Of a stretch of 64,000 nt of DNA, positions 12,765 through 48,559 are shown in pieces. Source of the stretch: an uncultured Acidimicrobiia bacterium. Its GTDB lineage: Bacteria; Actinomycetota; Acidimicrobiia; Spongiisociales; UBA5794. The DNA lies in NCBI GenBank assembly GCA_963759175.1, contig CAVWXP010000008.1:10050-74049 (forward strand), given 5' to 3'. How positions within the stretch are numbered: the first letter of the stretch is position 1; every line of letters begins with the position of its first letter. The notes under the pieces are model-generated. The model worked only from the letters and a program-made list of their open reading frames with translations, was not told the origin of the DNA and did no database searches. The position numbers and the translations under genes are program-made.

Positions 12765-12770
12765 GCCGGC

Positions 12771-13394: not shown

Positions 13395-13436
13395 GATGGC
13401 GGGATGGTACCCACCGGTGCCGGGGTACCGCGACGA

Positions 13437-13751: not shown

Positions 13752-13926
13752 GCTACCAAGCGGCCGAGAGGCGGGCGAGGGTCAACTCCGCCCCGCACGA
13801 CGTGACTAGTCGGTGGAACGGATGCCGGAGGAACCGGAAGAAGGCTGAAACGTCGCCTATCGTCGGAGGGTCCTAGGATCGAGATCGCCCAACACCCCAA
13901 ACCGCCCACTCCATCGGAGGAACATC

Positions 13927-15362: not shown

Positions 15363-15382
15363 CACCCGCGGCGGCAGCGACG

Positions 15383-15787: not shown

Positions 15788-15799
15788 GCCAGTGGTAGA

Positions 15800-17335: not shown

Positions 17336-17777
17336 CCTCGTCGGGCCTCGGGGCCCGTGGGTTGTCGGTGAAGCCTGCCTCGCGGTGCGACAGATCACAG
17401 AACGGTTGGTTGCCGCTCGCCCCGCACCGACACAGCGCCGCGCGTGGGCTCGCCGTGAATGCGTTGCCATCACGATCGGTCACCTCGATGGCGCCGCGCA
17501 CCATGAGCGGACCGTTGGGCCACGGGACGATCGTCGTCGGGACGTCCGGCACCTCACCCCGGGCCCCGTCGAGCCGCTCGTAGCGCAGCGCACCCGACGG
17601 ACACGACTCGATGGCCGCCACGACGGTCGCTGTCTCAGCCGCTTCCAGGTCGACCCATGGTCGCCGTCGCGTGTCAAAGGCTCCGTTGCCCTTGCGCAAG
17701 CAGATACCACTGTGGATGCAGAGGCTCGAGTCCCAGAGGACCCTGATCGCGTCGGATTCGTAGGTCCGGTGTGCCAC
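17235..17777 (-). CDS. iron-sulfur protein: divergent 4Fe-4S mono-cluster ferredoxin-like domain plus CDGSH-type domain
   Basis: CIHSGIC...CPSGAL (Fer4_13/DUF1271-like) and LCRCGASGNQPFCDLSH (CDGSH-like). The Arg-rich tail after about 17370 looks like read-through into the cydA deletion junction. Confidence 0.6.
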   Translation of the reverse strand: MAHRTYESDAIRVLWDSSLCIHSGICLRKGNGAFDTRRRPWVDLEAAETATVVAAIESCPSGALRYERLDGARGEVPDVPTTIVPWPNGPLMVRGAIEVTDRDGNAFTASPRAALCRCGASGNQPFCDLSHREAGFTDNPRAPRPDEEGRGSHRDPGTRLVPCRTRRERRGPWIRCGRCG

Positions 17778-17787
17778 GGCCGGAACC

Positions 17788-19455
17788 CTACTCCGCGCGT
17801 CGCTCGGTGCGAGCGGCGCCTAGACGAGGATCCACGCCGAACAGTCCGTCGCGAGCTTGCCATCGGTGATGCGGTCCACTTGCCACCAATACCTCGCCGG
17901 CCGGGAGGGGTACCTCTGACGTTGACATGTTGACGACACATGCCACACCCGATCCCCTGCGGAAAGCGACGACGCCAGCGCCAAGATCCAGCCACTCGAG
18001 ATCCTCGTCGTTCATCATGTGGAGCCGACGTAGTTCGAGTGCCCGCCGGTACAGGTCCAGGGTGGACGATGGATCGGTGTTCGATGCGGCGGCGAATGCG
18101 CCCCATCCCGGGGGTTGCGGCAACCATGGTTCCACCGAGCCGAACCCCGCCGAGGGTCCGTCATCAGACCACGGGATGGGCACCCGACATCCATCGCGGC
18201 CCTTCTCCGTGTGTCCCGACCGTGTCCATACGGGATCGTCGAGTACCTCGACCGGGAGGTCATACACCTCGGGTAGCCCGAGCTCCTCCCCCTGATACAT
18301 ATAGGTCGAACCGGGAAGGGCGAGCATCAGCAGCGTTGCGGCTCGGGCGCGGCGCAGACCGAGGGCGTCGTCGACCTCGTCGCGGTCCCCGTCGAGGAGC
18401 CACGTCTTCGAACGGGTTCCGGGCGGAAGGGCGTATCGGGTTGCATGGCGCACGACGTCATGGTTCGAGAGCACCCAGGTCGGAACCGCACCCACGGATG
18501 CGGCACCTTCGATCGATGTCACGATGGCGTGGCGCATCTGGGCGGCGTCCCAATCGGCTTCGAGGAAGTCGAAGTCGAACACCTGGTGGAACTCATCGGC
18601 CCGCAGGTACCGCGCAAGTCGGTCCCAGTTCGCCACCCATGCCTCAGCGACCATGACCGTGTCGGGATACTCATCGAGCACGGTTCGCCATCCCCTGATG
18701 ATGTCGTGGACGTCGTCGCGGTCCCAATGGGGATGTGCTCCGCGTGCGAGGACACGGTCCTGATCGGTCTCGTCGGCATCGTCTGCGTCATGGTCGATGT
18801 CGGGGAAGCTCTGGTCTTTTGCGAGACCATGGGCGACATCGACCCTGAAACCACATGCGCCGAGATCGAGCCAGAACCGGAGGATGTCGTGGAACGCCTC
18901 CCGCACCCTCGGGTTCTCCCAGTTCAGGTCGGGTTGGCTGGGGTCGAACAGATGGAGGTACCACTGGCCATCGGGAACCCGCGTCCACGTCGACCCACCG
19001 AAGACGCTTCGCCAATTGTTCGGGGGTAGTTCTCCGTCGGGGCCCCTGCCGTCGCGGAAGATGTAACGATCGCGTTCCGGCGAGCCCGGCGGCGCCGCAA
19101 GGGCTTCGCCGAACCAGCGGTGGGCTGATGACGTGTGGTTGGGAACCAGGTCGACCATCACCTTGATGCCGTGGTCCCCGGCCTCGGCGATCAGCGCCTT
19201 CGCCTCGTCGAGGGTCCCGTAGAGGGGGTTGATGTCGACGTAGTCCGCCACGTCGTAGCCGCCGTCGTTGAGCGGGGACGGATACCACGGGTTGACCCAG
19301 ATCGCATCGACCGATAGTGACGCCAGGTAGGGCAATCGTGACCGGATACCTGCGATATCGCCCGTTCCGTCACCGTTCCCATCGGCGAATGACCGGATGT
19401 AGACCTGGTAGAAGGCGCCGCGTCGCCACCACGGAACGGGGATCTGGGAATGCAT
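17788..19455 (-). CDS. GH13 alpha-glucosidase / oligo-1,6-glucosidase family
   Basis: Start MHSQIPVPWWRRGAFYQVYIRSFADGNGDGTGDIAG. Motifs DLVPNH, GFRVDVA and EAW, characteristic of GH13_31-type enzymes. Confidence 0.85.
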   Translation of the reverse strand: MHSQIPVPWWRRGAFYQVYIRSFADGNGDGTGDIAGIRSRLPYLASLSVDAIWVNPWYPSPLNDGGYDVADYVDINPLYGTLDEAKALIAEAGDHGIKVMVDLVPNHTSSAHRWFGEALAAPPGSPERDRYIFRDGRGPDGELPPNNWRSVFGGSTWTRVPDGQWYLHLFDPSQPDLNWENPRVREAFHDILRFWLDLGACGFRVDVAHGLAKDQSFPDIDHDADDADETDQDRVLARGAHPHWDRDDVHDIIRGWRTVLDEYPDTVMVAEAWVANWDRLARYLRADEFHQVFDFDFLEADWDAAQMRHAIVTSIEGAASVGAVPTWVLSNHDVVRHATRYALPPGTRSKTWLLDGDRDEVDDALGLRRARAATLLMLALPGSTYMYQGEELGLPEVYDLPVEVLDDPVWTRSGHTEKGRDGCRVPIPWSDDGPSAGFGSVEPWLPQPPGWGAFAAASNTDPSSTLDLYRRALELRRLHMMNDEDLEWLDLGAGVVAFRRGSGVACVVNMSTSEVPLPAGEVLVASGPHHRWQARDGLFGVDPRLGAARTERRAE

Positions 19456-23659: not shown

Positions 23660-25396
23660 TCAGTCGGAGGGACTCCCCGCTCCGTCTGCAAGAGGTGGCT
23701 GCTGATCCTCGGCCAATTGCATTCGGCGGAGGAAGTCGGTGACGCCGTCGTCGACTTCGAGGTAGATGCCCTCGCCGGCGAGACGGTCAACGATGCCGGT
23801 CGACACAAGTTCGCCCTGTATCTCGGTTCTCACTCGCGCCATCGCGAATCCGATGGTCTCCTGGTCGAGTTGGTCGAGCATCTCGACGAGCACCTGGGCG
23901 CCGGTCGAATCGATGTCGGTGACGGCCTCGGCGTCGAGCAGCACCTCGGTGACCGCGTCTTCGGCCGTGTCGATGGCTGAGCTGATGTCGTTGCGGAGTT
24001 GGGTCGCGTTGGCGAAGAAGATCGGGGCGTCGAACCGGTAGATGAGGAGTCCGGGGAACGTCGTGGTGTCGGTGTGATCTTCAACGTCCCGGTAGGTGTC
24101 GGTTCCATCGAGACGCCCGAGCACCGCTGTGTGGGGGGACGACGCTCGCAGCACGACGGCGAGAAGCGACAGCGCCACGGCAACCAGGATCCCTCCGAGC
24201 ATCCCGATGATCAGCACGGCAAAGATCGTGAAGACGCCCATCCAGAACTCGGTTCGCCGATAGTGCCACAACGCGGTGAACTCGACGGTGTCGAGCAACC
24301 CGAGGCCGGCGACGATCACGACGCCGGCGAGGGTCGCATCCGGGAGATACGCGAAGACCGGAGCGAGCACGAGCAGGGTGAGGAGGACGAAAGCCGCCGC
24401 CCATAGATTCGCGACCTGGCTCTTCGCTCCCGCATCACCGAGCACGAAGCTCCTCGACTGGCTCCCGTTGACCGGGAACCCACCCAAGAACCCAGATCCG
24501 ATGTTGGCGGCACCGATCCCGAAGAACTCCCGGTTGGCGTCGAGGCGATAGTTGCTGATGCTGGCGAGGGAGCGGCCGGTGAGCACGCTGTCGGGATAGA
24601 CCAGCAGCGCCACGGCGAAGGCCGGACCCAGCAGACCAAGCGTGTCGCTGAGCGGAACCCCCGGCAGGCTCGGGATCGGAATGCCGGAGGGGAACTCTCC
24701 GACCACGGCAACGTCGATATTGAAGATCCATACGAGCGCCGTGAACACCACCACGGCCACGAGGGCTCCCGGAATCGCCCGTGCGAAGCGCTTGAACAGC
24801 ATGACGATCGCGATCGTGCCGACACCGATCGCCAGCGCAGCAAGATCGGTGTCGCCGAGGTTGCGAAGAACGCCACCGATGTCGGTGATGTAGAGACTCG
24901 CGTCGATGTCGATGCCGAACAGCTTCGGCAACTGGCTTGCGACGATCAGGATCCCCGATCCGAACACGTATCCGGCGAGGATGGGACGCGAGAAGAAGTC
25001 GGCGATTCGGCCGAGGCGCAGGAAGCCACCGATGAGCAGCATCGCTCCGACGAAGATGCTGAGCATCGCCGCCATGGCGATGTACTCCTCGGACCCCATC
25101 GCGGCTCGCGGCGCCAGGATCGTGGCGACCATGATCGCAACAGTGGACTCGGGCCCGACGTTGAGTTCCTTGCTCGAACCCCATATCCAGTAGAGGACGA
25201 GCGCCCCGACGGCGGCGTAGAGGCCGTTGACCGACGGCATGCCGGCAAGCGCGGCATATCCGAGCGACTGGGGGACCAGCATCGCCCAGACGGTCAACCC
25301 GGCGAGCATGTCGGGGCGAACCCAGGATCGCTTGTACCGCCTGAGCATCCCGATGCCCGGCGCAAACCGGTCGATTCCGTCCGTGTGTTCAGTCAT
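23660..25396 (-). CDS. SulP-family anion transporter with C-terminal STAS domain
   Basis: N-terminal LAGLTVWAMLVPQSLGYAALAGMP (SulP signature), about 10 TM helices and a STAS-like C-terminus. Confidence 0.85.
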   Translation of the reverse strand: MTEHTDGIDRFAPGIGMLRRYKRSWVRPDMLAGLTVWAMLVPQSLGYAALAGMPSVNGLYAAVGALVLYWIWGSSKELNVGPESTVAIMVATILAPRAAMGSEEYIAMAAMLSIFVGAMLLIGGFLRLGRIADFFSRPILAGYVFGSGILIVASQLPKLFGIDIDASLYITDIGGVLRNLGDTDLAALAIGVGTIAIVMLFKRFARAIPGALVAVVVFTALVWIFNIDVAVVGEFPSGIPIPSLPGVPLSDTLGLLGPAFAVALLVYPDSVLTGRSLASISNYRLDANREFFGIGAANIGSGFLGGFPVNGSQSRSFVLGDAGAKSQVANLWAAAFVLLTLLVLAPVFAYLPDATLAGVVIVAGLGLLDTVEFTALWHYRRTEFWMGVFTIFAVLIIGMLGGILVAVALSLLAVVLRASSPHTAVLGRLDGTDTYRDVEDHTDTTTFPGLLIYRFDAPIFFANATQLRNDISSAIDTAEDAVTEVLLDAEAVTDIDSTGAQVLVEMLDQLDQETIGFAMARVRTEIQGELVSTGIVDRLAGEGIYLEVDDGVTDFLRRMQLAEDQQPPLADGAGSPSD

Positions 25397-25405
25397 CTCG
25401 GTCCC

Positions 25406-25882
25406 TCACGGGTGTCTCGGGGTCGGTCGGCTCATGTCGGCTGGGGCGTCGTCGTGAGAGCCGTCTTTGGCGTTCCCGATCCGGGTGCCTCGCTCGACTT
25501 CGAGCTCGAGCAGCACATCGACAACATGATTCATCTGCTCATCGGTGACGGGATCGAACCGGTATGCCTCGTGGACGAAGGCCGCCGTGTCGCCTCGGAA
25601 GTCGTGTCCGAAGGACTTGAACTGTCCAGGAATCACTCGCATTGCGTTCATGGCATCCACCATCACCTGAACGAATGAGATCAGCGGCACCCATTCCATC
25701 CGTTCCGGCACCCCACGTCCCCTGGTGTCGGATGCAAGCCAAGCAGGGCGTTTCACCGCCATGCGGAATGACATCTGAGCGATCGGATCATTGTCGTGGT
25801 CCAGCACGATCGCCCGAAGCTGATTGGCTTCCGCTCGAGGGAGTCCATGCAACTCTTCGATGCGGTCGAACGCATCGTTCAT
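25406..25882 (-). CDS. hypothetical protein (operon partner upstream of SulP)
   Basis: 158 aa, 9 bp upstream of the SulP start. No recognised motif. Confidence 0.45.
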   Translation of the reverse strand: MNDAFDRIEELHGLPRAEANQLRAIVLDHDNDPIAQMSFRMAVKRPAWLASDTRGRGVPERMEWVPLISFVQVMVDAMNAMRVIPGQFKSFGHDFRGDTAAFVHEAYRFDPVTDEQMNHVVDVLLELEVERGTRIGNAKDGSHDDAPADMSRPTPRHP

Positions 25883-25943
25883 ATTCGATCTTTGGGGAAA
25901 TGGTTGGCGCTCATCGCGGTCGCCACTTCGTGTTCGAGATGCT

Positions 25944-26525
25944 TCAGGTTGAGATCCGTACGTACGTGATGGAGGGAACGTCGGCCAGGGTGTCTTCGAC
26001 GATCGACACCAGGCTCTCGGGACATCCGATCACCAGGCTCACTCCACAACGGTCTGTCTGACCACCGACGCGGGCGAGATCCCCCCACGACATCGACCTC
26101 CGGGTCTCAGCAGCGAGCGTTGAGAGCCCTGCGCGCTCCCCTGGTTTGCCTGCGAGGTAGCCGGTTCCATCAACAGCCGACGGGTATAGCCAAAGGACGA
26201 GGCCGGTTGCCGGCCCCCAACCGTCCCCGAGCGCTCGACCGATAGTTGATGAAAGAGCGAACTTCCTGAGGATCTTCGTTGCCCCGCCGTCTTGTGGTCC
26301 GACGATCGCCATATCGACCTGGTCGACAACGTTCCTCTCGACGAGGAGGTCCTTCACCGCCTGATAGGCATTTCGGGCCGCTTCAACGGACTCCAGACAT
26401 GCTGTGATGAGGACGATGGTCTCAGGCCCTGGGGATTCGCTGTCGTCATACCGATCCGGAGGCACAGCGTCACTCCAACGACGGCGCTGTGGCTGAGACA
26501 CCAGCCGATGCACCAGATCGCTCAC
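25944..26525 (-). CDS. DUF1269-like (general-stress-type, tandem ACT-like fold) protein
   Basis: ETIVLITAC...AARNAYQAVKDLLVERNVVDQVDMAIV pattern resembles DUF1269/YflT-type proteins. Weaker than the second copy at 36001. Confidence 0.45.
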   Translation of the reverse strand: MSDLVHRLVSQPQRRRWSDAVPPDRYDDSESPGPETIVLITACLESVEAARNAYQAVKDLLVERNVVDQVDMAIVGPQDGGATKILRKFALSSTIGRALGDGWGPATGLVLWLYPSAVDGTGYLAGKPGERAGLSTLAAETRRSMSWGDLARVGGQTDRCGVSLVIGCPESLVSIVEDTLADVPSITYVRIST

Positions 26526-26574
26526 GAGGTTCGTACTTCATATGCGAGACCATTGCGCGCTTCGATCAATGGCG

Positions 26575-26592
26575 CATCACCCGAAACGGGTG
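26575..26592. promoter_or_regulatory. palindromic motif CATCACCCGAAACGGGTG (copy 1 of recurring CACCCG-N3-CGGGTG element)
   Basis: 50 bp upstream of the DUF1269-like gene start. An identical 15-bp palindrome architecture recurs four more times in the window. Confidence 0.6.
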
Positions 26593-26614
26593 CGATTGGT
26601 GGAAGGTCCGCGGC

Positions 26615-29282
26615 TCAGTCGACCAGGTGAAGGAAGCGAGCGGCTGCAACCGCTTCACTGCGCTTCCCGGCGCCGAGCTTTCGGTAGATGATCTTGAGGT
26701 GGGATTTCACGGTGTTGCGGGAGATCATCAGCTCCTCCGCCAGTTCGGCATAGGTCATGTGGCTCGGCAAGAGCCTCAAGAGAGTCAACTCGCTCTGCGT
26801 GAGTGGTTCGAGAAGGGTGAACTCATGGACTCCGGGAGACGGTGGAGTCGCCGTTGATGCGGGAGCAATCAGATGCCCGCTGATGGCGACCGCGTTGTCG
26901 AACGTCGCACCAAACCTGGATCGCTCGTCGAGGAATCGCTGGATATGACCGGTCTCCGAGGCGAGGCGCATTGCGGCGGCAAGGGCGGTGATCGCATCCT
27001 CTTGTTCGCCTACCGTGAGCAGCCAGCGTGCCTCGACGAGGAACCCATCCATGCGATGCACAACCGTCACTTCTCGGTTGTCTGGAAGTGCCTCGAGCAG
27101 CGTTCGTGGATCCTGGCCTTGCTGCGCAACGAGCCATGCTTTCAACAGGGCGTGTCGGATCGAGGGCCCCCCGACATCTTCGAATTGCCCGATCAACTCT
27201 GCTGCCTTGTCGACATCTCCTTCGAGCAAGTGGAACCGCACGGATTCCTCGAGGATCCGGTCGTGGTACACACCCTTAACGTGACGCCCTGCTGGCGTGA
27301 TCCGTGCGCGATCGAGTTCCTTGCGAACGGACGCCATATCGCCAAGGGACCACGACGCACGCGCCCGGACAAGATGCGCCTCGACGAACGCCGGGACATA
27401 CGCGCTCGTGTCGATCCTATCCATGACTGGATCGAGGAGTTCGAACACGTCCTGCAGTTCGCCCCGTTCCCAGGCGACACGTGCTGCGGGAACCGTCACC
27501 ATGCCGAACTGTGTCGTCGAGCCGAAGCCGGACGACATGAGTTCGTCTCTGGAGGAGAACGTCAGAGCCTCGACCTCGCTGAGCTGACCGCGACCAAACT
27601 CCAGATTCGCTCGCTTCGTGATCCCGTCGGCCCGATTCGCCGGAATCTTGCTCTCGGGGGAGAAGATCCACTCGTACCATCGCTCGAGTTGTCGCATACC
27701 CAAGCTGTACTGCTCATCAGCGGACAGGAGAGCACCGAATACCGACTCGACGAAGCCGTTCTTGCCGGGCACGCCTGCCATCCCCTTGACCAACTCAACG
27801 ACGCGGGCAAGGTCTCCCCTGCGATACGCAGACATCGCGATCGCTTCATCCAGGAACTGAGCAGAGGTCATTCCAAGCGGCCCCGTTTCACCTATCCACG
27901 CATCATCGACTGAACTATCCCGAGCCTCGATGAGTCCGTCGATGGCATAGTCGAGGACGTGATCGAGCTCTGATTCGGGTTTGTCAAGGTAGACAGCGGC
28001 CATACACCACGCCGTACGCATGAGAATTGACACGTCCGAACTCAAGCTGTTGAGCTCGCTGATCATGTCGTAGAGGGTGGACGCCTGGCCTGCGCCGAGC
28101 AATTCCGGGAGAGCCTCGGTGATCCAAACGTCGACCTCGTCGGCGACGCCACCTCGCGCAGCGAGCGAAACCGCCTCGAGCGTGTTCCCATGACCGTGCA
28201 TCCATCGTGCCGCAACCCCACACAGGTCTGCGGCACGCTTCGGCTGCTGACGCCACAGGACTGCTCGCATCGACATCTTGAGTATGTCGTGGTAGGCGTA
28301 TTCGGTACCGCCGTCGTTGCTTGCGCTCGTGAACAACCCCGATTGCTCGAGTTGGTGGAGAATCGCTGCGCTGTCCGCCCTCCCTGTGAGGTGATCGCAC
28401 AGCTCCGTCGGCATGACGTCGAGGATCGAGGTGTCGAGGAGGAACTGTCTTTCGGCGCCATCGAGATGATCAAGGACCTCCTCGACCAGGTAGCGACCAA
28501 CGGCGTCATAGGCGCCATCGAAGGACCCCACCGCCGGCACTTCTGAAATCGACGCTTCGGTACCACGGAACGATGCTGCCCCGGCAGCAAGCCGAATCCC
28601 GCCGATCCACCCCATGGCTCGGCGATTCAGCTCCGTTCGCGACGCTGTCCGTGGTCTCGTGGCCGTAGACCCTGGTGATGAGATCGGTGGCCTCCGCGTC
28701 GGTGCACCTCAGGTGAGCGGTCCTGATCTCGAGCAGGTCCCCCGAAACGCGATACCGAGAGATGCTGAAGGAAGGATCCGACCGCCCGATGAGAACGATG
28801 TGGACCCGCTCGGGCATCTGGGCCACGACCTGCGCCAGAAGATCGCTTGAGCCACCCGCGGACAGGGCCTGGATGTCATCGATGACCAGGATGCACGAGT
28901 CAGAGCCCTCAGCGAATGCGGCCGACATCGCGTCAATTGCACGCACGAGGCCGTTCGACGGGTTCGACATGACCTCGAGGGTCGCGCCTGCGACATCCGG
29001 GTAGACGGTCGCCACGGATTCCACGAGATGCGTTGCCAGCCTGACCGGGTCGTTGTCATACCGATCGAGCGAGAGCCAACCGACGGGAAGTTCCGGGTGG
29101 TAGGACAGCCAGTCTGCAACCAACCAGGTCTTCCCGAACCCCGCAGGCGCCGTCACGACGGTGATCCGATGGTCGAGGATTCCCTCGGACAACGCGAGCA
29201 ACGCTCTTCGCTCGATGGCGGATGCGGGCAACCGAACAGGTCGGACCTTCGTTGGGACGGCCGTGACCTGTTGTTCACCCAT
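26615..29282 (-). CDS. LAL-family (MalT-like) large ATP-binding LuxR-type transcriptional regulator, one frameshift
   Basis: Walker A ITVVTAPAGFGKTW, central helical/TPR-like region and C-terminal LuxR HTH (ELAEELMISRNTVKSHLKIIYRKLG). The two ORFs are joined across a GGGG run near 28611. Confidence 0.8.
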
Positions 29283-29343
29283 GAGGAATCCAGACTCTCG
29301 TGCCGACACTATACGGATGGCGAGGCCGCTCACCGACCGAAAA

Positions 29344-29358
29344 CACCCCATTCGGGTG
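29344..29358. promoter_or_regulatory. palindrome variant CACCCCATTCGGGTG in divergent LAL-regulator / AI-2E promoter region
   Basis: One mismatch to the CACCCG-N3-CGGGTG core. 62 bp upstream of the LAL start. Confidence 0.45.
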
Positions 29359-29368
29359 AGGCAGGCAC

Positions 29369-30517
29369 ATGGCATCAACGGATACATTCGCCAGACCAAC
29401 AGCGAGCCAAGGAGCACCGGTGGCTGCCAAGCAAGACACGCAGATCCAGATGGATGGAGTCACCAGCACCGGCCGCAAGGCATGGGGTTTCGTGGGGATC
29501 ATCGTCCTCTCGGTGATCATCTATGTCGCGCTCGCATCCCTCTCGGGCCTTGTCATCCCGCTCATCGTGGCTTCGGTGATCGGCGCACTCTTCGTTCCTC
29601 TCGTCGATCGGCTCGCAGGGTTCCTTCCGAGGAAGGGAGCCGCTGCCATCGTGCTCGTCGGTCTTCTCGTCGTCGGGTTCGGGGCGGTGGCCGTCGCCGT
29701 GAACGGGGTCGTCGACCAGGGGCCCGAGATTCGGGTCCAGATGGCCAGCGGTATCGAGACGATCCGGGAATGGCTTGCCGATGCAGGAATCGACATCTCG
29801 AGCGGCGAGCAGGTCGTCGACAGCGGCGAGGAGTCCATCACAGATATGGCTCCCGGCCTGACATCATTGGTCGGCTCGATCTTCTCGAGCGCCGGCGCTT
29901 TCGTGGCGGGAACGGCAGTGTCGCTCTTCCTGCTGTTCTACCTCCTCACTGACTGGAAGATGATGACCGAGTGGGCGGGAACCCACCTGGGGCTTCCCCG
30001 GGACCTGGGGGCGGGAGTCGTCGACGACGCTGTCTGGTCGGTTCGCAGATACTTCTATGCGCTCACGCTCACAAGCCTTTTCACAGCGGTCGTCATCGGG
30101 ATAACCGCCGCCATCATCGGTGTTCCCCTCGCCTTCACGATCGCCCTCGTCACCTTCATCACGTCGTACGTTCCGTACGTCGGGGCATTCGTGTCCGGTG
30201 CCTTCGCTGTTCTGATAGCCCTGGGAGGCGGCGGGATCGAGGATGCCCTGGTGATCCTCGCAGTGATTCTGCTCGTCCAGATCGTGCTCCAGCCAATTCT
30301 CCAGAATCGCATGACGGCGTCGGAACTCGACCTGAATCCCGTCGTGAGCTTCGGATCGACGATCGTCGGTGGAGCATTCGCCGGTGTGCTCGGAGCGACG
30401 CTGTCCGCACCCGTCGTAGCCGCGGTCATTCGCATCAACGCCCGCGTCAAGGACTACGAGCAGCACGGACAGGTCGACCGAACCAACGCTGCCACCCATG
30501 GTGGCGACGGGTCGTGA
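29369..30517 (+). CDS. AI-2E family transporter (UPF0118/PerM-like)
   Basis: Eight TM helices with the AI-2E pattern (...LLFYLLTDW...ITSYVPYVGAFVSG...). The true start may be the Met at 29450. Confidence 0.75.
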   Translation: MASTDTFARPTASQGAPVAAKQDTQIQMDGVTSTGRKAWGFVGIIVLSVIIYVALASLSGLVIPLIVASVIGALFVPLVDRLAGFLPRKGAAAIVLVGLLVVGFGAVAVAVNGVVDQGPEIRVQMASGIETIREWLADAGIDISSGEQVVDSGEESITDMAPGLTSLVGSIFSSAGAFVAGTAVSLFLLFYLLTDWKMMTEWAGTHLGLPRDLGAGVVDDAVWSVRRYFYALTLTSLFTAVVIGITAAIIGVPLAFTIALVTFITSYVPYVGAFVSGAFAVLIALGGGGIEDALVILAVILLVQIVLQPILQNRMTASELDLNPVVSFGSTIVGGAFAGVLGATLSAPVVAAVIRINARVKDYEQHGQVDRTNAATHGGDGS

Positions 30518-30548
30518 CGGACAACCAGGTCCCGGACCACAAGGAGCG

Positions 30549-30947
30549 ATGATGGCAAGGGAAACAAGCGGCTGGGCTGTTGGCTGGACGATGTTCGCCG
30601 CGATCATGATGCTGATGATGGGCGGCTGGTGGATCATCGCCGGATTCGTCGCGGTCGTGAACGACGAGTTCTTCGTCGTCACGCAGGACTGGATCTTTCA
30701 ATTCGATGTCTCGACGTGGGGCTGGATCCACCTCATCATCGGGGCGATCGTGCTCATCGCAGGATTCGGTCTGTTCACGGCCGCGACCTGGTCTCGGGTC
30801 GTGGGAGTCATCCTCGCCGTGCTTTCGGGCCTCATCGCCTTCGCATGGCTGCCCTGGTATCCGGTCTGGGGTGCGATATTCATCGCCGTATCGATCTTCG
30901 TCGTGTGGGCACTCACAGCCCATGGCGAAGACATAACACACGCATAG
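30549..30947 (+). CDS. hypothetical Trp-rich 4-TM membrane protein
   Basis: AAGGAG Shine-Dalgarno 7 bp upstream; strongly hydrophobic. Confidence 0.5.
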   Translation: MMARETSGWAVGWTMFAAIMMLMMGGWWIIAGFVAVVNDEFFVVTQDWIFQFDVSTWGWIHLIIGAIVLIAGFGLFTAATWSRVVGVILAVLSGLIAFAWLPWYPVWGAIFIAVSIFVVWALTAHGEDITHA

Positions 30948-30966
30948 GAACGGCGTAGATTCCCTC

Positions 30967-31275
30967 ATGACGGCCGAACCCATGTCAAACACCGAGACCC
31001 TCTTCGACAAGCACGTGTATCAGTTCCTCGCGGGAGGAGCCGTCCTTCTTGTCGTCACGGGAACGATCGTCTACCGAATCCTCGAGGACTGGAGTTGGGT
31101 CGATTCCGTCTACTTCAGTGTTGTTGCCATAACGACGGTTGGGTTCGGTGATCTGAGCCCGTCGACGGATGCGTCGAAGATCTTCACTGTGGTGTACATC
31201 ATGGTGGGGATATCGCTGATCACGACCTATCTGAACGCACGGCTCAAGGTCAGGGCCGCCAAGCGCATCGGCTGA
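30967..31275 (+). CDS. minimal two-TM potassium-channel-like protein (pore helix plus TVGFGD filter)
   Basis: TM1, pore helix YFSVVAITTVGFGD (K+ selectivity-filter-like; F replaces the usual Y), then TM2. 102 aa. Confidence 0.55.
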   Translation: MTAEPMSNTETLFDKHVYQFLAGGAVLLVVTGTIVYRILEDWSWVDSVYFSVVAITTVGFGDLSPSTDASKIFTVVYIMVGISLITTYLNARLKVRAAKRIG

Positions 31276-31334
31276 CGTCTGTGCGCGGGCCACGGTCTAG
31301 CCAGGCGGTCCTGAGCCTGTTGATCTCCGGCACA

Positions 31335-31349
31335 CACCCGAATCGGGTG
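31335..31349. promoter_or_regulatory. palindrome CACCCGAATCGGGTG followed by ATG (copy 3)
   Basis: 61 bp upstream of the lipoprotein gene (31414), in the same orientation relative to the gene as the other copies. Confidence 0.55.
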
Positions 31350-31413
31350 ATGATTCGAACTCGATTTCGTGACAGGTTGCCAGCATCAACTCATGGCCAG
31401 AGAGAGGGCAGCA

Positions 31414-32283
31414 ATGCGTCGCTTCCGCAACATTCCAAACGTGATCCTCATGGTGGTTCTGGCCCTGGCGGTCGGACTCGCCGCGTGCGACAGCGACACT
31501 TCCATCGAATTGCGCCCCGAGGATGGGACCGCAGCTCCAGAATCCCCTGAGGCCACCACGCCACCCGAGACGGCACCTCCCGAAACCCCAGATGTGGGAG
31601 GCAACGGTGACGCCGCTCAACCCGCCGACGGAGAAGACGGCGACGGTATCCCGCCCTGGGTGTGGATCGTCGGACTTCTTGCGCTCGTCGGACTCGTCTC
31701 GTGGCTCGGAGCGCGCTCAGGGTCCAATCGTTCAGAACCCGCCGATGCAGCTCAACCTCCGCCAACTCCGGACGAACCAGCGGCCGCGGCCGTTCGCCAA
31801 GCGCTTGGTGATGCCCAATGGCTCCACGACAAGTTCGACACGATTGCGGTCGTCTCCCATGCCGACGCGACATATGCATCCACCACGAACCCGGATTCCC
31901 CACCGCCCCTGTCTACAGATTGGGATGCGATTCCGTCACGTCTCGCCGATGCGAGAAGCAGCCTCACTACGGCATCAGGGGTGACACGTGATCCAGCAAT
32001 CGCCAACGCATGCACGCAGCTGATGTCGCATATGGATTCGACGAGCACGGCCATCTCCGGTTGCCACGACGCTCGGGTTGCTCGTCGGGCAGCCGATGAC
32101 GGTCTACCCAACGCAATTCCGCAACAAGAAGCGTGGGCTGCGGATCAGCGAGCCCAGGACGACCTGTCGGTTTCGCGGTCCGCCCTGCAGGTCGGGATGC
32201 GACCGCCTCGTCCGCGCGCGGCATCTGAGCATTCAGGCGAGGCCTCGGCGATCCGGTCCCGGGCGAAAGGGAACATGAAATGA
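31414..32283 (+). CDS. Pro/Glu/Thr-rich lipoprotein with a second TM segment
   Basis: Lipobox LAAC after a signal peptide. A low-complexity acidic/proline region, then a TM helix. Confidence 0.45.
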   Translation: MRRFRNIPNVILMVVLALAVGLAACDSDTSIELRPEDGTAAPESPEATTPPETAPPETPDVGGNGDAAQPADGEDGDGIPPWVWIVGLLALVGLVSWLGARSGSNRSEPADAAQPPPTPDEPAAAAVRQALGDAQWLHDKFDTIAVVSHADATYASTTNPDSPPPLSTDWDAIPSRLADARSSLTTASGVTRDPAIANACTQLMSHMDSTSTAISGCHDARVARRAADDGLPNAIPQQEAWAADQRAQDDLSVSRSALQVGMRPPRPRAASEHSGEASAIRSRAKGNMK

Positions 32284-32636
32284 CGACTGAGGGAAGTCCC
32301 TCCCCGACTCGTCTGGCAGAACAACGGACCTACTTGGCGGCCGAGCGGACGCTCTTCGCCGTGCTGCGGACTGGTTTGGCCATCGCTGCCGGAGGCTCGG
32401 TGATCGTCTCCTTGCTTGGGGACCGCTGGCCATCGTGGATCCAGGTCCCCCTCGCGTCCGTGTTCCTCGTCGTGGGTTACGCCTTGGTACTCCTGGGCCT
32501 TCGCCGCTACCAAAATATCGCGAGGCGAGTCGAAGCTCGGGGTGGGAAGGAGCTCGACATCGTTCCCGTTCGCACCATGACGATCCTCACCTACTCGCTC
32601 GAGATCGCGATCACGGTGGTCGTCGTCCTTTTCTGA
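32280..32636 (+). CDS. DUF202 (YidH-like) membrane protein
   Basis: LAEQRTYLAAERTLFAVLRTGLAIAAGG matches the DUF202 signature. ATGA overlap with the upstream gene. Confidence 0.6.
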   Translation: MTTEGSPSPTRLAEQRTYLAAERTLFAVLRTGLAIAAGGSVIVSLLGDRWPSWIQVPLASVFLVVGYALVLLGLRRYQNIARRVEARGGKELDIVPVRTMTILTYSLEIAITVVVVLF

Positions 32637-32903
32637 CCGGCTCGTTCAACAGCTGAGGGCCGGACCGGACGCATCCGATCACCTCCCGCCCGATGGCACC
32701 AGAGCCGGTACCACCAAAGGGGGGCGACCTCACGGTCGCCCCCCCCTCGTGTACGCGTTGTCCGACTGCTACTGCCTCGCCATCATCCTCTGATACTTGA
32801 GGTCGTCTGGCTCGAGATGGCTGACATCGTCATCCTCGAGGTCGATCCGAACCCAGTTCAGCGTGCCCTGATATGCAATCGCGGCACCAGGGAGCTTTGG
32901 CGA

Positions 32904-34573
32904 TCATCCCTCGTCCGATGATTCGTCTGCGATCCAGACATGACCGCGGTCGATCGCCTCCTCGACCTCGGCTCGCATCTCGGCTCTCGCTTGGCTCACG
33001 TTCCCTTCGCCGATCGAGGCCGCTGCCCCCGTCACCTCGAGTTGAGCGAGGGCGGTCTCCTCGACTCCTACCAACTGGAGGCGGCACGACGCAGACTCCA
33101 ACGCCTTGGCATACCGCTGAAGCGTGTCGGTGAAGGTGGTCCCGAGGTCCTCCAACCCTCGCAAACGGAGAATCACGACAGAACGTTCGGAGTCGTCGGT
33201 GATGACTGGCAGGAGTTCCTCGAATACGGCTGCGGAGGCGAAGAAGACTGACCCGTATGGTTGGAGAACGATCACCTCGCGACGACCGACGGCCTCGGGA
33301 GCGTCCGATTCGACGGCTCCCTTGTCGGTCAGCTCGATGCGGCGGATCGAGACATTCGCCGAACTCCCGATGATGTAGAGAAGCATGGAGAGGACCACTC
33401 CAACGAGGACCGCGTATTGCAGGGGGATCACGATCGTGAGCACCAATGTCGCTCCCATGCCGATTCTCTGGATCCTTCCTGCATTCCAGATGGCCACGAT
33501 CTCGGGAACCTTCACCGTTCGGTACCCGACGACCATCAGAAGGGCCGCCAGGGCGGGCATGGCTATGTATCCGACCACGCCGGCCAGGAAGATGATCGTG
33601 ACGGCCATGACGCCACCGGCGATGAGCTGGGCGAGGGATGTACGCATCCCAGCTTCTTTCACGAGGGACGTCGCAGAAGCCGAACCCCCGACGGGCATGC
33701 CACGGAACAGCCCAGATACCAGGTTGCCGACTCCCTGACCGATGAAGTCCTTCGAGGCGTCCCCGTAGCTGCCGTCCGGATTCGGGAACGCACTGGTGAT
33801 TCCCGCTCCTTGGACGAGGCCCACAAACGCGAGGGCGATCGCCGGGATGATCAGCGATGGAACGGCATCGAGCACGGGAATGCTCGGAACAGGCAACCCG
33901 CTCGGGATGTCTGCGATCGACCGCAGTTGGAGCACGTCGCCACCGAAGGCCAGAGCTGCAACAGAACCAGCAGCAACCGCGACAACCATCCCGAGAGCGC
34001 CCAGTCGAGTCCGTTCCAAAAGGACGATCGCCGCGACTGTCCCCAGTCCGATTGCGAGTGTGGCCGAATCGACCTGCAATGGGTGCGCTACGAGGTCCAG
34101 GGTTCGTGCGAGCCTGTTGCTCCCCTCTGCCGCGTAGCCGGTGAAATTGTCGAGCTGCCCAAGGACGATGTTGATCCCAACGGCGCTCATGAAGCCCACC
34201 ATCACCGACTTCGAGACGAATCGGAGGATGAATCCGAGCTTCAGGAGGCCAGCGACGAGCATGACAACCCCGGTTAGGAGCGCGAGGCGAAGAGAACACG
34301 ATCGGCGTCTTCGCCGACTCGTACGATGCCGACGTCAGCCACCACCAGACTCATGGCTCCCGTCGCCTGGACAGTCATGTACACGGTCGATGTGGCAAAT
34401 GCTGCCCCCACCATGCCGTACAGATATCCGTACAGGCCGAATACGGGGTTCACCCCCGCGACGAGGCCTTGTGCAAGGCCGTCGGGAATACTCTCGACAC
34501 CAAGCACGAGTCCCGCTACCGAGTCCCGCTTGAGGTGAGCCGGATCGAATCTCGCACGAATCCGTTCGAGCAT
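32904..34573 (-). CDS. SulP-family anion transporter with STAS domain (second copy), one frameshift
   Basis: N-terminal SulP signature (GLAQGLVAGVNPVFGLYGY) in ORF 34274..34573 and the transporter body plus STAS in 32904..34262. The frames join near 34270-34290. Confidence 0.75.
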
Positions 34574-34580
34574 GGGCCAG

Positions 34581-35930
34581 CTAACTCCTTCGATCCGTCA
34601 TGGCACGACGATGCAGCGATCGACACGACGCTTCATCACCCGTTTCGGGTGCTTCGGGCGGGACGGAATGCCGTGCTGACGCATCAGCCGGTTTCGGCAC
34701 CCCGAGCTTGGTGATCTCCGACGGGGCTCGGCCCGAGACGAGGAGTCGACACATGAGCTTCATGGCTGGATCGATGTGGGAGAACAGCCCCTTGTATGAC
34801 GGGCAGAGGTAGTTGAGCCCGGGGTCGCCATCCGGGGTCTCGGTGAACCGGTTCCGTGGGCACCCGCCGTGGCACGCGAAACGGACGTCGCAGTCGAGGC
34901 AATACTCTGGAAGGGTGTCGCGCTTGGCCCGTCCGAACGCCTTCTGCTTGTCGGAGGCTACGAGGTCGATCATCGGGGTCTCGGTGATGTTGCCCAGTAG
35001 ATGGTCGGGCTCGACGAAGTGATCACACGAGTACACATCGCCGTTGTGTTCCATCGCCAGGGCCAGTCCACACGTCTCCTGATGGATGCACAGTCCTCCC
35101 GGCTCGCCGTACCAGCTTGCGAGAGCAGTATCGAACGTCTGGACGTACACCTCACCGACGTCACGCTTCACCCACTCATCGAATATCTCGATGAGGAAGC
35201 GGCCGTATCCCCCCGGCGACACCGAGCGGTCGGTCACGAACGTGCCCGTCTGCGTATACAAGGGCCGCTTGTCCTTCTTCGACGTAGACCATCCGAGATT
35301 CGCCAGCGGGAGGAATGTCTCCGTGGACCGCTCGATGATCGGAATGAACTGGATGAATCGCGCCCCGAGTTCGTCACGGAAGAACCGATACACCTCGGGG
35401 CCCCGCTTCTCGTTCGCGGCATGAACGGTGCACAGAATGTTCACATCCACCCCGGCCTCGATGAGGTGCCGGTGACCGCCCATCACGCGGTCGAACGAGC
35501 CAACCCCGCGACGATCGGTCCGATACGCATCATGCACATCCTTCGGCCCGTCAACGGAGAGTCCAACGAGGAACCCGTTCTCCCTGAAGAACTCGGCCCA
35601 CCGATCATCGATGAGAACCCGTTCGTCTGGATCGTGTAATCGATCTGCTGGCCCGGTCGACGGTGCCGGTCAACGAGTTCAACAGACCGACGGAAGAAGT
35701 CGAGCCCCATCATTGTCGGTTCGCGCCCTGCCATGCCACGGTGACATTCGGGGTCTTATGGGATTCGAGTAGCTGCCTCAGGTACTCCTCGAGCAACTCG
35801 TCAGCCATCCGGAACCGATCACCGGGATACAGCATCTCCTTCGACAGGAAGAAGCAGTAGTCACAATCGAGGTGCAGATCGGTCCGGTCGGCTTCGCCAA
35901 CATGTGATAGGCCGGAGGCTTGACCGCCAT
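34581..35930 (-). CDS. anaerobic sulfatase-maturating enzyme-like radical SAM/SPASM protein (AslB/AtsB family), at least three frameshifts
   Basis: HMLAKPTGPIC...DCDYCFF (CxxxCxxC region), GLDFFRRSVELVDRH...IQTNG, and a SPASM Cys cluster (CIHQETC...CDHF...CLDCDVRFACHGGCP). The pieces are in different frames via single-base deletions. AAGGAG Shine-Dalgarno upstream of 35930. Confidence 0.7.
34633..34650. promoter_or_regulatory. palindromic motif CATCACCCGTTTCGGGTG (copy 4)
   Basis: 60 bp upstream of the SulP #2 start codon. It lies within the doubtful 3' tail of the anSME ORF. Confidence 0.55.
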
Positions 35931-36000
35931 CAGTGACTGACTCCTTCAGGTGAGCGACTCCGGGAGGACACTGCCTCCGAAGACCGATGCGCGATGCGAG

Positions 36001-36786
36001 TTATGCCTCGGGTGCGGCCTCTTCCTCTTGTTCATCATCTGCCGGTTCTTCCTCTTTCGCAACTGCTGCACCGTCAGGGGTGTCGACGGTATCCACGACG
36101 GCCGCCACCTCGTTGTACGTGACGCCATCTTCGTCAGCGACCGCAGTCCGAATGTCGACGGCACCCTCGGTTGCATCGATGCTGAACACGGCAAGCTCGT
36201 CAGCGCTTGCAACGACTTTCCTGGCCGCTACGCCGTCCTCGGTGACCACCACGGCCATGAGAACGTCCTCTTCGGCTGCAAGGTGATCGCGGATGATGGC
36301 CGAGATCTCCTGCGCTGTGGCCATCGTCTCTTCATCGGTCGACTCGGACCTGACTGCCTCGATGAACGCCGTGCTGGTCGTCACGACAATCGCCGACGAG
36401 CCCTCCGGAAGAGCAGCGCCGAGCTCGTCGAGCGATCGATTGTCAAAACCCGCATCAGAGTGTGCCGCGACCCCACCGACCGCTGCGCCGGCGCCTGCCC
36501 CGAGTGCCACTCCGGCTGGTCCACCCAACACACCGATGAGTCCACCGATCAGCGCTCCGATTCCTGCTCCCTTGCCGGTGCTCATGTCACCGGATTCATT
36601 GATGTGTACGTGCCCGCCCGTGTCCCGGCGGACAATGGCCGCATCCTCGAAGTCGATCAAGCCATCCATGCGTACTTGTCGGGCCCTGTCCAAGGTCTCC
36701 TTGGCTGCTGATTCATCGCCGTACGCCGCAATCACGACACCGACCCCGATTGGGCCCTCTACCTGGGATTCATCGCTCACGATCAT
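36001..36786 (-). CDS. DUF1269-family protein (tandem repeat, Gly-zipper membrane segment)
   Basis: VIAAYGDESAAKETLDRARQVRMDGLIDFEDAAIVRRDTGGHVHINE followed by a GxxxG-rich segment. The second half repeats the fold. Confidence 0.6.
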   Translation of the reverse strand: MIVSDESQVEGPIGVGVVIAAYGDESAAKETLDRARQVRMDGLIDFEDAAIVRRDTGGHVHINESGDMSTGKGAGIGALIGGLIGVLGGPAGVALGAGAGAAVGGVAAHSDAGFDNRSLDELGAALPEGSSAIVVTTSTAFIEAVRSESTDEETMATAQEISAIIRDHLAAEEDVLMAVVVTEDGVAARKVVASADELAVFSIDATEGAVDIRTAVADEDGVTYNEVAAVVDTVDTPDGAAVAKEEEPADDEQEEEAAPEA

Positions 36787-36887
36787 TCGCTCCTTCTGGG
36801 TGTCCTCACTGGTGCCTGACGCGGATGATGGATCCGCTGCAGGCTCTGTCGTCCATGACGCATGGTCAAGGATCCGACACCGAGCGG

Positions 36888-36905
36888 CATCACCCGTTTC
36901 GGGTA
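36888..36905. promoter_or_regulatory. palindromic motif CATCACCCGTTTCGGGTa (copy 5)
   Basis: The 17-mer CATCACCCGTTTCGGGT is identical to copy 4. 102 bp upstream of DUF1269 #2, in the divergent region shared with the MBL hydrolase. Confidence 0.55.
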
Positions 36906-37183
36906 TTGCGAAGCCATCCAGGTCGGGTGCGCGACCGCCCGAGATCGTTCCACAGGCCGGTCGTCCGTGGCGCCGGAAGCGGGACCGGATCCACCTACGA
37001 CGAGAACCTCCGGTTGCGTGACGTCATGATCCACGATGTTGACAATGCGCGAGGCGCTCGGGTTCTCAACAGGGCCCGACAAGCAGCACACACGATGGTG
37101 CGTCACCGTTTCGAGGATCGGAAGGGCCGTCGCCGCCAACACGCGTAGGGTTGGCGACCTGAGCGGCGATCTGGAAAGGCTCG

Positions 37184-38314: not shown

Positions 38315-38386
38315 TGGGCGCTACTGGATTTGAACCAGTGACCCCTGCCGTGTCGAGGCAGTGCTCTGCCGCTGAGCTAAGCGCCC
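38315..38386 (-). tRNA. tRNA-Val (anticodon GAC)
   Basis: GGGCGCTTAGCTCAGCGG..., anticodon loop CTCGACACG? read as TCGACAC, GGTTCAAATCC T-arm. Confidence 0.85.
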
Positions 38387-38440
38387 GGGTTTGTCGGTGA
38401 CCAGAAGATAGCCATCGAGGATGACATACCACTGCGGTCG

Positions 38441-38511
38441 AGGCGACGCCGGGAATCGAACCCGGGTACAGGGTTTTGCAGACCCTTGCCTCGCCACTCG
38501 GCCACGTCGCC
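38441..38511 (-). tRNA. tRNA-Cys (anticodon GCA)
   Basis: GGCGACGTGGCCGAGTGG..., anticodon loop CTGCAAA, GGTTCGATTCC T-arm. Confidence 0.8.
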
Positions 38512-38544
38512 AATAGGAAGGGCGGTCCTCGAGACCGCCCTCTC

Positions 38545-38620
38545 TGGAGCGGACGACCGGGTTCGAACCGGCGACCTCAACCTTGGCAAGGTTGCGCTCT
38601 ACCAGCTGAGCTACGTCCGC
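38545..38620 (-). tRNA. tRNA-Gly (anticodon GCC), CCA encoded
   Basis: GCGGACGTAGCTCAGCTGGTAGAGC..., anticodon loop TTGCCAA, GGTTCGAACCC, ...TCCA. Confidence 0.85.
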
Positions 38621-40643: not shown

Positions 40644-41801
40644 ATGTCACGCACCACCTCCAACGGTTCAAACGGCAACGACGGCAGCTGGTTCCTCGAG
40701 GCAGTTGGTGCCAAGGAACGGGCGCCCACGCCCATCGAGTCCGTTGCCGAGCTCGAGGCAGAGAACACGGCCACGGACATCGAGGTATTGGCGACCGTAC
40801 CGGCGCAGGCGGCACCGATCGTCGCCTTCGATGGCGACCCCGGCACCTCCACATCGTCGTTCCACCCGGTCCCGGTGGCGCCGCCACCACCGGCCCTCGA
40901 GGAGGACACAGCGTCGGAGCTGGCGACGTCCTCACCGGCCCCGTCCGCTTCCGACGATGCCGACCTGGCGCCCGTCTTGCGCTCCAGACGTCGCTTCCGA
41001 TGGCCGGTCGTCATCGGTCTCTTCGCCATCATCGGTCTCATTGCTGTTGCAGCCTGGTGGCTACCCCGATCGGTCCAGGACCAAGCCCTGGCTGTTCGCC
41101 AGGGCTACTACGACGCGGCCGCCGAGCTGCGCGCGTACCTACCCACGGCACAGACCGGACTCGACGCCATCACGAACCCGACGTCGGACGAGGCAGCCGT
41201 GTCAGGAGCGGTGCCCATCGTCGCCGAGTTCGACACGAAGGCGTTTGCCCTGGCGAGTGCCACGGCCGAACCCCTTCCGTCGGTTCCCCCGCTCGTCCCG
41301 TCCTCGCCGGTGGACGAGTTGGTTCCCCTCAAGGCGACAGGGTCGATCCTCGGTGCGGCAGCGTCGGAGCTCGCACGGTCCCTCGGTGGCGCCTACGTGT
41401 ACCGCACCTCGATACCGCTCCTCCTCGACACGGGGCCGCTGCCGACGTCGGCGACGACACAGGAAGTCAACGAGATCAGTGTCAGACTCGCCGAATCCCT
41501 CGCGACGGACGCCGGGATCATCGCAGATCTTCCCGACCAACCGATCTTCGCCGAGGTCCTCGTAGGGGCAACGGCCGCTGCCGAGCGGTACGCCGCATGG
41601 CAGGATGAGTACCTCGCCTCCCTGACAGGCGAGGATCCCGAGGCGGCCACCATCCTGATCGAGGAGATCGACACCATGCGCGACACGCTCGACGCCATCA
41701 ACGAAGCGGCGCTCCTGGACTACCGAACGGCGAACGACGCGGGGATCGTCACGCTCGCCAACGAACTCGACGCCTATCTCGTGGCCATCAGTCGCCCGTA
41801 G
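40644..41801 (+). CDS. hypothetical Ala/Pro-rich single-pass membrane protein
   Basis: Real start placed after the divergent dut. One TM helix (WPVVIGLFAIIGLIAVAAWWL). Confidence 0.5.
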   Translation: MSRTTSNGSNGNDGSWFLEAVGAKERAPTPIESVAELEAENTATDIEVLATVPAQAAPIVAFDGDPGTSTSSFHPVPVAPPPPALEEDTASELATSSPAPSASDDADLAPVLRSRRRFRWPVVIGLFAIIGLIAVAAWWLPRSVQDQALAVRQGYYDAAAELRAYLPTAQTGLDAITNPTSDEAAVSGAVPIVAEFDTKAFALASATAEPLPSVPPLVPSSPVDELVPLKATGSILGAAASELARSLGGAYVYRTSIPLLLDTGPLPTSATTQEVNEISVRLAESLATDAGIIADLPDQPIFAEVLVGATAAAERYAAWQDEYLASLTGEDPEAATILIEEIDTMRDTLDAINEAALLDYRTANDAGIVTLANELDAYLVAISRP

Positions 41802-48546: not shown

Positions 48547-48559
48547 GGGGCTCGCCGAT

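Follow-up and report, generated by a model that had tools for sequence, protein, structure and literature searches.

What is the role of a short inverted repeat that recurs upstream of several genes in a 64-kb stretch of DNA from an uncultured Acidimicrobiia bacterium (contig CAVWXP010000008.1; the whole stretch is hereafter the window)? The first-pass annotation of this DNA had described five copies of a palindrome, CACCCG-N3-CGGGTG, and had read them as transcription factor sites of an uncharacterised regulon, with the neighbouring regulator of the LAL family as the likely binder. This reading has gained support, since the motif also occurs upstream of homologous genes in distant genomes. 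The motif clusters non-randomly, is conserved, keeps a fixed spacing to a −10-like hexamer and is genomically linked to LAL genes. On the evidence set out below, the palindrome is probably the binding site of a LAL dimer located at about −43.5, from where it would activate the promoters of the window.

The pattern CACCCGNNNCGGGTG, with at most one mismatch, is found six times in the window against an expectation of 0.88, and none of 100 dinucleotide-preserving shuffles reached this number; the repetition thus exceeds chance, as had been supposed. Five copies are confined to 10.3 kb (26.5–36.9 kb), while the sixth match (40863–40877) has a GC spacer, lies within an open reading frame (ORF) and is probably fortuitous. 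When oriented towards their genes the five copies read (C/T)ACCC(G/C)-WWW-CGGGTG-ATG, and the complete palindrome, as it would be put on a binding probe, is TCACCCGAAACGGGTGATGC. The CAT/ATG flank of copies 1, 3, 4 and 5, which faces the downstream gene, and the 17-mer common to copies 4 and 5, CATCACCCGTTTCGGGT, are as first described; so are the coordinates of copies 1, 2, 3 and 5, while copy 4 had been placed one base off (Table 1). Distances to start codons were measured on the intact gene calls of two 99%-identical contigs (L127 and L001), in which all five copies are intergenic, and they range from 61 to 112 nt rather than the 50–100 bp given earlier. Copy 1 lies 22 nt past the stop codon of the LAL gene, upstream of a unit encoding p193, an Abhydrolase_9-like protein and the first SulP permease (SulP1). 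Copy 2 occupies the divergent region between the LAL gene and the AI-2E transporter gene, 61 nt from either start codon. Copy 4 seemingly falls inside the ORF of the sulfatase-maturase-like gene (anSME) in the window because of a one-base homopolymer gap; in L001 it is intergenic, and in the intact relatives it is found between the anSME stop and the start of the second SulP gene (SulP2). A weak second site, CATCCAGGTCGGGTG, with two mismatches and a GC-rich spacer, is present at 36915–36929, 24 bp from copy 5 on the side of the MBL hydrolase gene, and paired sites are also seen in L130 (4518/4593), L037 (2856/2889) and L110 (5964/6018).

It is hardly credible that these copies constitute a dispersed repeat of the repetitive extragenic palindromic (REP) type, or that they cluster by chance and lack a regulatory function. 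This explanation is invited by the shortness and GC-richness of the palindrome in a genome of 64% GC, and most single matches in unrelated phyla do look like chance; against it stand the shuffling result, the conservation of the motif in front of homologous genes in different classes and phyla, and the location of all five copies upstream of genes at a fixed distance to a −10 element. The scatter inside coding regions that would speak for a REP-like repeat is contradicted at the level of the window, the other 54 kb of which hold no credible copy.

The comparison of orthologous promoters bears this out in close and distant genomes alike. Three 99%-identical metagenome contigs (L001, L126 and L127) retain every copy, and a further contig (L002), whose DUF1269 protein is 86% identical, retains TACCCGAAACGGGTGATGCCG next to an upstream flank that is unrelated. 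Past the stop codon of SulP2, L001 carries an additional motif copy (4972) together with a PF00884 sulfatase gene (4916–6113), where the window (around 32889) and L127 have DUF202; this difference is a strain-level gain or loss of a putative regulon member.

A Sigma-70 consensus scan of the 26.0–37.5 kb region found no promoters, but the scan is too strict for high-GC promoters, and a positional test was used for that reason. To this end 39 non-redundant sites from the window, the loci of LAL orthologues and a genome scan were aligned, each oriented to its gene, and hexamers with A at position 2 and T at position 6 (NANNNT) were recorded by alignment column. Such hexamers start at columns 39–41, i.e. 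24–26 nt past the palindrome, in 33 of the 39 sites, but in only three of them when read the opposite way; in an earlier set of 29 sites, the mean for other three-column windows is 2.3, and matches to the stricter TANNNT concentrate at columns 39–41 as well. The resulting layout comprises the palindrome (columns 1–15), the hexamer ATGCSS at the −35 position (columns 16–21), a spacer of 17–18 nt and NANNNT (columns 39–44). ACCC and GGGT are invariant in 33 of 33 sites of another set, a 3-nt and mostly A/T spacer separates the arms in 39 of 39, and C occupies column 19, which lies outside every search pattern, in 29 of 39. As the −10 is at a fixed distance, the gene-facing ATG flank can be explained as the TG of a −35 element. 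This would be the layout of a class-II promoter, with predicted start sites and predicted activation, and it would place the centre of the palindrome near −43.5, upstream of the predicted transcription start. The −10 elements of the individual copies are included in Table 1. On the LAL side of copy 2, TATAGT is found 7 nt further out than the standard spacing. Copy 5 had been assigned to both the DUF1269 gene and the divergent MBL hydrolase gene; the former assignment is backed by GACCAT at the right spacing, whereas no −10 fits on the MBL side.

The same geometry bears on the suggestion, also made at first pass, that the element acts as RNA, either as a 5′ untranslated region (UTR) hairpin with a 6-bp stem and 3-nt loop or as a 3′-end stabiliser or terminator of the upstream gene. 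The predicted hairpins have folding energies of −9 to −11.5 kcal/mol, copy 4 lies 33 nt past the anSME stop, and some of the C-to-T changes in the left arm would preserve G–U pairing. Yet a conserved −10-like hexamer 24–26 nt downstream would leave the motif outside the regulated transcript, and the loop consists of AAA or TTT whichever way the gene points, i.e. the spacer is strand-symmetric. The closing pair is broken (C/C or G/G) in several copies, three of the five have unremarkable folding z-scores, there is no U-tract apart from a spurious match upstream of the LAL gene, and Rfam matches are limited to tRNAs. An RNA element is thus very improbable, and the palindrome copies are predicted promoter elements and not RNA.

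Two further candidates were considered and rejected. For a SigF/SigB-type or extracytoplasmic function (ECF) sigma factor promoter (GTTT-N15-17-GGGTA and similar), no conserved −35 was found upstream of GGGTG, and both halves of the palindrome are equally conserved, although a sigma element would not require this of the distal one. A leaderless mRNA or upstream ORF starting at the flanking ATG (ORFs of 3–34 codons) was set aside, the −10 being downstream of that ATG. The longest of these ORFs, 34 codons, follows copy 5 (36786–36890), and its stop overlaps the start of DUF1269 (ATGA); it stays in frame in L002 (699–824) despite 21 extra nucleotides. It is probably irrelevant, its ATG being upstream of the predicted transcription start.

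Which protein, then, would recognise the palindrome? According to a hidden Markov model built from the C-terminal helix-turn-helix (HTH) domains of LALs, the LAL gene between copies 1 and 2 is the sole ORF in the 64 kb with a GerE/LuxR-type HTH. A frameshift splits this gene in the window; the intact protein (P0121 in L127) has 888 amino acids with AAA_16/AAA_22, WHD_MalT, TPR_MalT and GerE domains, and its N-terminal 370 residues match the structure of Escherichia coli MalT (PDB 8bob) with E=2e-36. Orthologues form a distinct tier of 32–36% identity over the full length (E from 1e-74 to 1e-113), whereas the next matches reach no more than 1e-29, and the members of this cluster come from metagenome-assembled genomes of Acidimicrobiia; a metagenome scan with the LAL returned a single 2-kb contig of the same lineage. 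The four orthologue loci (L128–L131) contain two to five copies of YACCCG-N3-CGGGTR each, nearly all intergenic, amidst genes of recurring families: AI-2E, DUF2254, DUF1254/DUF1214, Ion_trans_2, DUF202, DUF7144, SulP-STAS, anSME, MscS and Usp. The copies are located in the divergent region between LAL and AI-2E, in the spacer between LAL and DUF7144, and upstream of DUF1254/1214, DUF202, DUF7144, SulP and ABC1. Counting L127, the motif adjoins the LAL gene in all five loci. Two LAL paralogues per cluster are observed in L128, in tandem (6954–12685), and in the more distant locus L134, about 2.7 kb apart (10001–18079), which hints at duplication and sub-functionalisation of the regulator.

The reverse approach started from the motif. 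GTDB genomes were scanned for the exact 18-mer CACCCGWWWCGGGTGATG, yielding at least 119 loci with at least 124 sites, and the counts below refer to the matches listed. A −10 at the right spacing accompanies 45 of 124 sites, at a chance rate of about 8%, and loci with such sites amount to 25 of 43 in Actinomycetota, seven of 11 in Chloroflexota and 12 of 65 in other phyla. Crude ORF calls placed 83 of the 124 sites inside ORFs, which is an over-call and was not used for any conclusion. The families of the downstream genes recur from locus to locus. They comprise DUF7144 (L014, L027, L065), DUF1269 (L007, L125), DUF1254/1214 (L036), alkyl sulfatases (L015, L096, L107), a sulfatase (L061) and anSME (L113), as well as Ppx/GppA (L030, L068, L098), GH15 (L013, L105), glyoxalase (L066, L122) and MBL (L099) proteins. 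Of the 119 loci, each of 8 kb, 11 contain a LAL-type gene, which often directly abuts the motif (for example in L064, L065, L027, L051, L067 and L121), and the LAL genes recovered in this way belong to Thermoleophilia, Nocardia, Streptomyces, Chloroflexota and Desulfovibrio. A Fisher test of promoter-like status versus LAL presence was not significant (p=0.10), because four LAL-abutting loci fail the strict −10 rule; the test was poorly framed. Adjacency to LAL genes is thus encountered repeatedly whether one begins with the motif or with the regulator, and together with the fixed −10 spacing and the lack of a second GerE-type HTH in the window it argues for the LAL as the likely binder, in line with the first-pass annotation.

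Two observations from the motif-first scan merit separate mention. Three Chloroflexota loci carry the motif at ppx/gppA genes (L030, 2503–2570; L098, 6300–6382; L068, around 2879), and in L030 and L098 the −10 is followed by a nearly identical leader, CCTATAGTCGGCGCCCCGCGGCGGATCCGAG, that may be a conserved 5′-UTR element. In Nitratidesulfovibrio/Desulfovibrio (L051, 5585–5777; L067, 4941–5129; L069, around 1897) the exact 18-mer is located at the 3′ end of a LAL-type gene, and the next gene encodes a large protein devoid of Pfam matches; the pairing of LAL and motif may hence reach beyond Actinomycetota and Chloroflexota.

Taken as a mechanism, each (T)YACCCG-WWW-CGGGTR(A) palindrome would be bound by a dimer of GerE/LuxR-type HTH domains, contributed by the adjacent MalT-like LAL, a STAND ATPase. 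The site would abut the −35 position of a promoter of the housekeeping sigma type, and the switched-on regulator would occupy it and, like a class-II activator, recruit or stabilise RNA polymerase. If the analogy with MalT holds, this switch would require ATP and a ligand sensed by the TPR arm. Five units would be turned on, the p193 unit included. Their products comprise two SulP-STAS permeases, AI-2E, DUF7144 and a K+ channel, the lipoprotein and DUF202, and DUF1269 together with the sulfatase-maturase-like enzyme. Judging by these genes, the inducing signal may be related to the scavenging of sulfate esters and to membrane or ion stress. Both the LAL as binder and activation as the sign of regulation are what we infer from the sequences.

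Several points weigh against this model. The transcription starts are deduced only from the −10-like pattern. Actinobacterial −35 elements are generally weak, and a poor −35 is therefore no proof that the promoter needs an activator. The geometry is also compatible with repression through occlusion of the −35 region: the LAL, or some other protein, would sit at −51 to −36 and block sigma region 4 and the C-terminal domain of the alpha subunit, and ligand-dependent release would derepress the gene. The site does overlap or abut the −35 position, and the LAL SCO6993 is reported as a negative regulator acting on short inverted repeats; however, MalT and most characterised LALs are activators (PMC9628970). 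The −10 spacing, moreover, is very strict across phyla and is combined with a weak −35 hexamer (ATGCSS), features typical of activator-dependent promoters. Repression thus appears unlikely.

Other points of the same tenor concern the identity of the binder. In other phyla, the LALs encoded beside the motif share no more than 25–28% identity with that of the window, and their orthology is therefore not established. More distant LALs of Gordonia (L132), Chloroflexota (L133) and Planosporangium (L134) have the neighbour families known from the window, yet the expected intergenic regions contain no clean motif, with versions that are degenerate or have a GC spacer only. Among the listed matches of the genome scan, many promoter-like sites have no LAL within 8 kb, so that another, unlinked GerE-family protein could bind there. 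Extended to the window, this would mean that the binder is encoded elsewhere, for example as a BldM-like response regulator of the NarL/FixJ type, and that the LAL is merely a co-regulated neighbour. The half-site is the same as in the BldM box, and L131 encodes, at a distance of 7 kb, a histidine kinase paired with a GerE response regulator. We nevertheless regard such a protein as a poor candidate: the LAL has no GerE-type competitor in the window, LAL genes abut the motif in unrelated taxa as well as in all five orthologue loci, and the spacer is invariably 3 nt long and not 2 nt as in the BldM box.

The LAL dimer as activator remains the reading we favour, and the genes it would control were mapped by Pfam scans of the window ORFs (Table 1). 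The protein annotated earlier as the first of two DUF1269 proteins, here p193, is not supported as such: Pfam detects no DUF1269 in it, and BLASTP against the other DUF1269 protein gives E=0.42. An exact look-up of the sequence of the window's DUF1269 protein returned no record. Compared with the 99%-identical contigs L001, L126 and L127, the window has single-base gaps that split the LAL, SulP2 and anSME genes; one of them, near the end of anSME (CC versus CCC), causes read-through of the anSME stop. The gaps look like homopolymer indels of a long-read assembly rather than true pseudogenes.

Table 1. Positions in the window of the palindrome copies, their predicted −10 elements, the transcription units and the assembly gaps
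Feature	Position	Strand	Remarks
Copy 1	26578–26592	−	CACCCGTTTCGGGTG then ATGCGC; equivalent at 8394 in L127
Copy 2	29344–29358	+	CACCCCATTCGGGTG; one mismatch; equivalent at 5629 in L127
Copy 3	31335–31349	+	CACCCGAATCGGGTG then ATGATT
Copy 4	34637–34651	−	CACCCGAAACGGGTG then ATGAAG
Copy 5	36891–36905	−	TACCCGAAACGGGTG then ATGCCG; one mismatch; kept in L001 and L002
Predicted −10 of copy 1	26549–26554	−	AATGGT; columns 39–44
Predicted −10 of copy 2 (AI-2E side)	29383–29388	+	TACATT
Predicted −10 of copy 3	31373–31378	+	CAGGTT
Predicted −10 of copy 4	34608–34613	−	CATCGT
Predicted −10 of copy 5	36862–36867	−	GACCAT (GATCAT in L002)
Transcription unit 1	23660..26525	−	p193, short Abhydrolase_9-like ORF, SulP-STAS #1
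SulP-STAS #1	23660–25396	−	Pfam
p193 (earlier DUF1269 #1)	25944–26525	−	no Pfam match
MalT-like LAL/STAND regulator	26615..29282	−	AAA_16/AAA_22, WHD_MalT, TPR_MalT, GerE; between copies 1 and 2
Transcription unit 2	29420..31275	+	AI-2E transporter, DUF7144, Ion_trans_2 K+ channel
Transcription unit 3	31414..32636	+	Pro-rich lipoprotein, DUF202
Transcription unit 4	32904..34573	−	SulP-STAS #2; split by a frameshift here, 556 aa where intact (L001, L127)
Transcription unit 5	34581..36786	−	DUF1269, radical-SAM/SPASM sulfatase-maturase-like gene (anSME, frameshifted in the window)
Single-base gap sites	28506–28615, 34262–34274, 35669–35710, ~34690		relative to L001 and L127

The MBL hydrolase gene lies on the plus strand on the far side of copy 5, and just past it three tRNA genes (38315–38620, minus strand) bound the regulon block. 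Elsewhere in the window, an ORF resembling a tyrosine recombinase/integrase (5020–6183, plus strand) adjoins a tRNA gene (6281–6352, minus strand), and the two (5020–6352) may mark the edge of an integrated element. A housekeeping block (47158–62442; miaB, recA, rimO, a pabB fusion and ftsK) and a plsB-like gene (9331–12105) place the regulon in an ordinary chromosomal context.

The arrangement seen in the window recurs in many genomes of Actinomycetota and Chloroflexota. It may well be, and we put this forward with some hesitation, that a widespread and so far undescribed subfamily of MalT-like STAND regulators recognises TCACCCG-N3-CGGGTGA at −43.5 of a stereotyped promoter in Actinomycetota, Chloroflexota and possibly Desulfovibrionales, and thereby controls a conserved regulon for 'sulfate-ester and membrane/ion stress'. 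This regulon would comprise sulfatases, alkyl sulfatases, sulfatase maturase, SulP-STAS, AI-2E, DUF1254/1214, DUF1269, DUF7144, DUF202 and DUF6325. To our knowledge LAL/MalT-like regulators are very numerous in Actinomycetota, and very few of them have a defined site or regulon outside antibiotic clusters. The present analysis provides a sharply defined consensus for the operator, a promoter of stereotyped layout and a set of recurring targets, which ties DUF1269, DUF7144, DUF1254/DUF1214, DUF202 and DUF6325 to sulfatases, sulfatase maturase and SulP-STAS permeases and so offers a guilt-by-association clue to the biology of these DUFs. If the subfamily exists as proposed, several large DUF families would become functionally accessible for the first time, and LAL regulators would gain one of their rare defined operators. 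Cultured carriers of the motif exist in Nocardia (e.g. N. jiangsuensis), Arthrobacter (A. humicola), Streptomyces (Streptomyces sp. NPDC004647) and Pseudonocardia. No new kind of mechanism is revealed; the element would be an operator–promoter module of a LAL/MalT-like regulator.

How does this module relate to characterised systems? When the literature was searched for the half-sites and for footprints of LALs, the BldM box was the only sequence match, and these searches turned up neither a 7-3-7 TCACCCG palindrome nor the regulon. The Group-I box of BldM in Streptomyces, 5′-TCACcCgnncGgGTGA-3′, was defined by ChIP-seq and DNase I footprinting; it shares the half-site TCACCCG/CGGGTGA, is likewise palindromic and is located in promoter regions of Actinomycetota (PMC4125116). 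It is bound by a homodimer with GerE/LuxR-type HTH domains, a mode of binding that is predicted here. The BldM box, however, is a 16-bp palindrome with a 2-nt spacer, whereas the spacer here is A/T-rich and one nucleotide longer. BldM is an atypical response regulator (REC and GerE), while the regulator linked to the present motif is a MalT-like STAND ATPase of about 890 amino acids, and the 64-kb window encodes no REC-GerE protein, its only GerE protein being the STAND/LAL one. In addition, BldM targets developmental genes, in contrast to the transporters, sulfatase-related proteins and DUF membrane proteins of the present set, and the motif is also present in lineages that do not sporulate (Acidimicrobiia, Thermoleophilia and Chloroflexota). 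The spacer and the nature of the linked regulator therefore set the element apart from the BldM box.

MalT itself has the same architecture as the LAL of the window (NOD/AAA, winged helix, TPR-like arm and GerE), and its sites, too, lie next to or across the −35 region of promoters that depend on an activator, activation being a prediction in our case. MalT boxes are asymmetric (GGGGAKGAGG, core GGA[TG]GA) (PMC9628970) and are arranged as direct or irregular repeats, unlike the single 7-3-7 inverted repeat described here, which has no GGAKGA core; the ligand and regulon predicted for the window are unrelated to maltodextrins. The lux boxes of LuxR/TraR and other class-II sites are centred at around −41.5 to −42.5, compared to a predicted position of about −43.5 here, and they represent inverted repeats for a GerE-HTH dimer, as predicted for the present motif, about one helical turn upstream of −35/−33, with a weak −35 and a fixed −10 spacing. 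The lux box, on the other hand, measures 20 bp and differs in sequence from the 15–17 bp motif, and the regulator of the window has no autoinducer-binding domain. The Streptomyces LALs such as PikD, RapH, SCO6993 and SCO0877/SCO7173 are members of the same protein family and are mostly pathway activators encoded beside their targets; what distinguishes the present system from them is a sharp consensus combined with a predicted regulon that lies outside biosynthetic gene clusters and is conserved across phyla.

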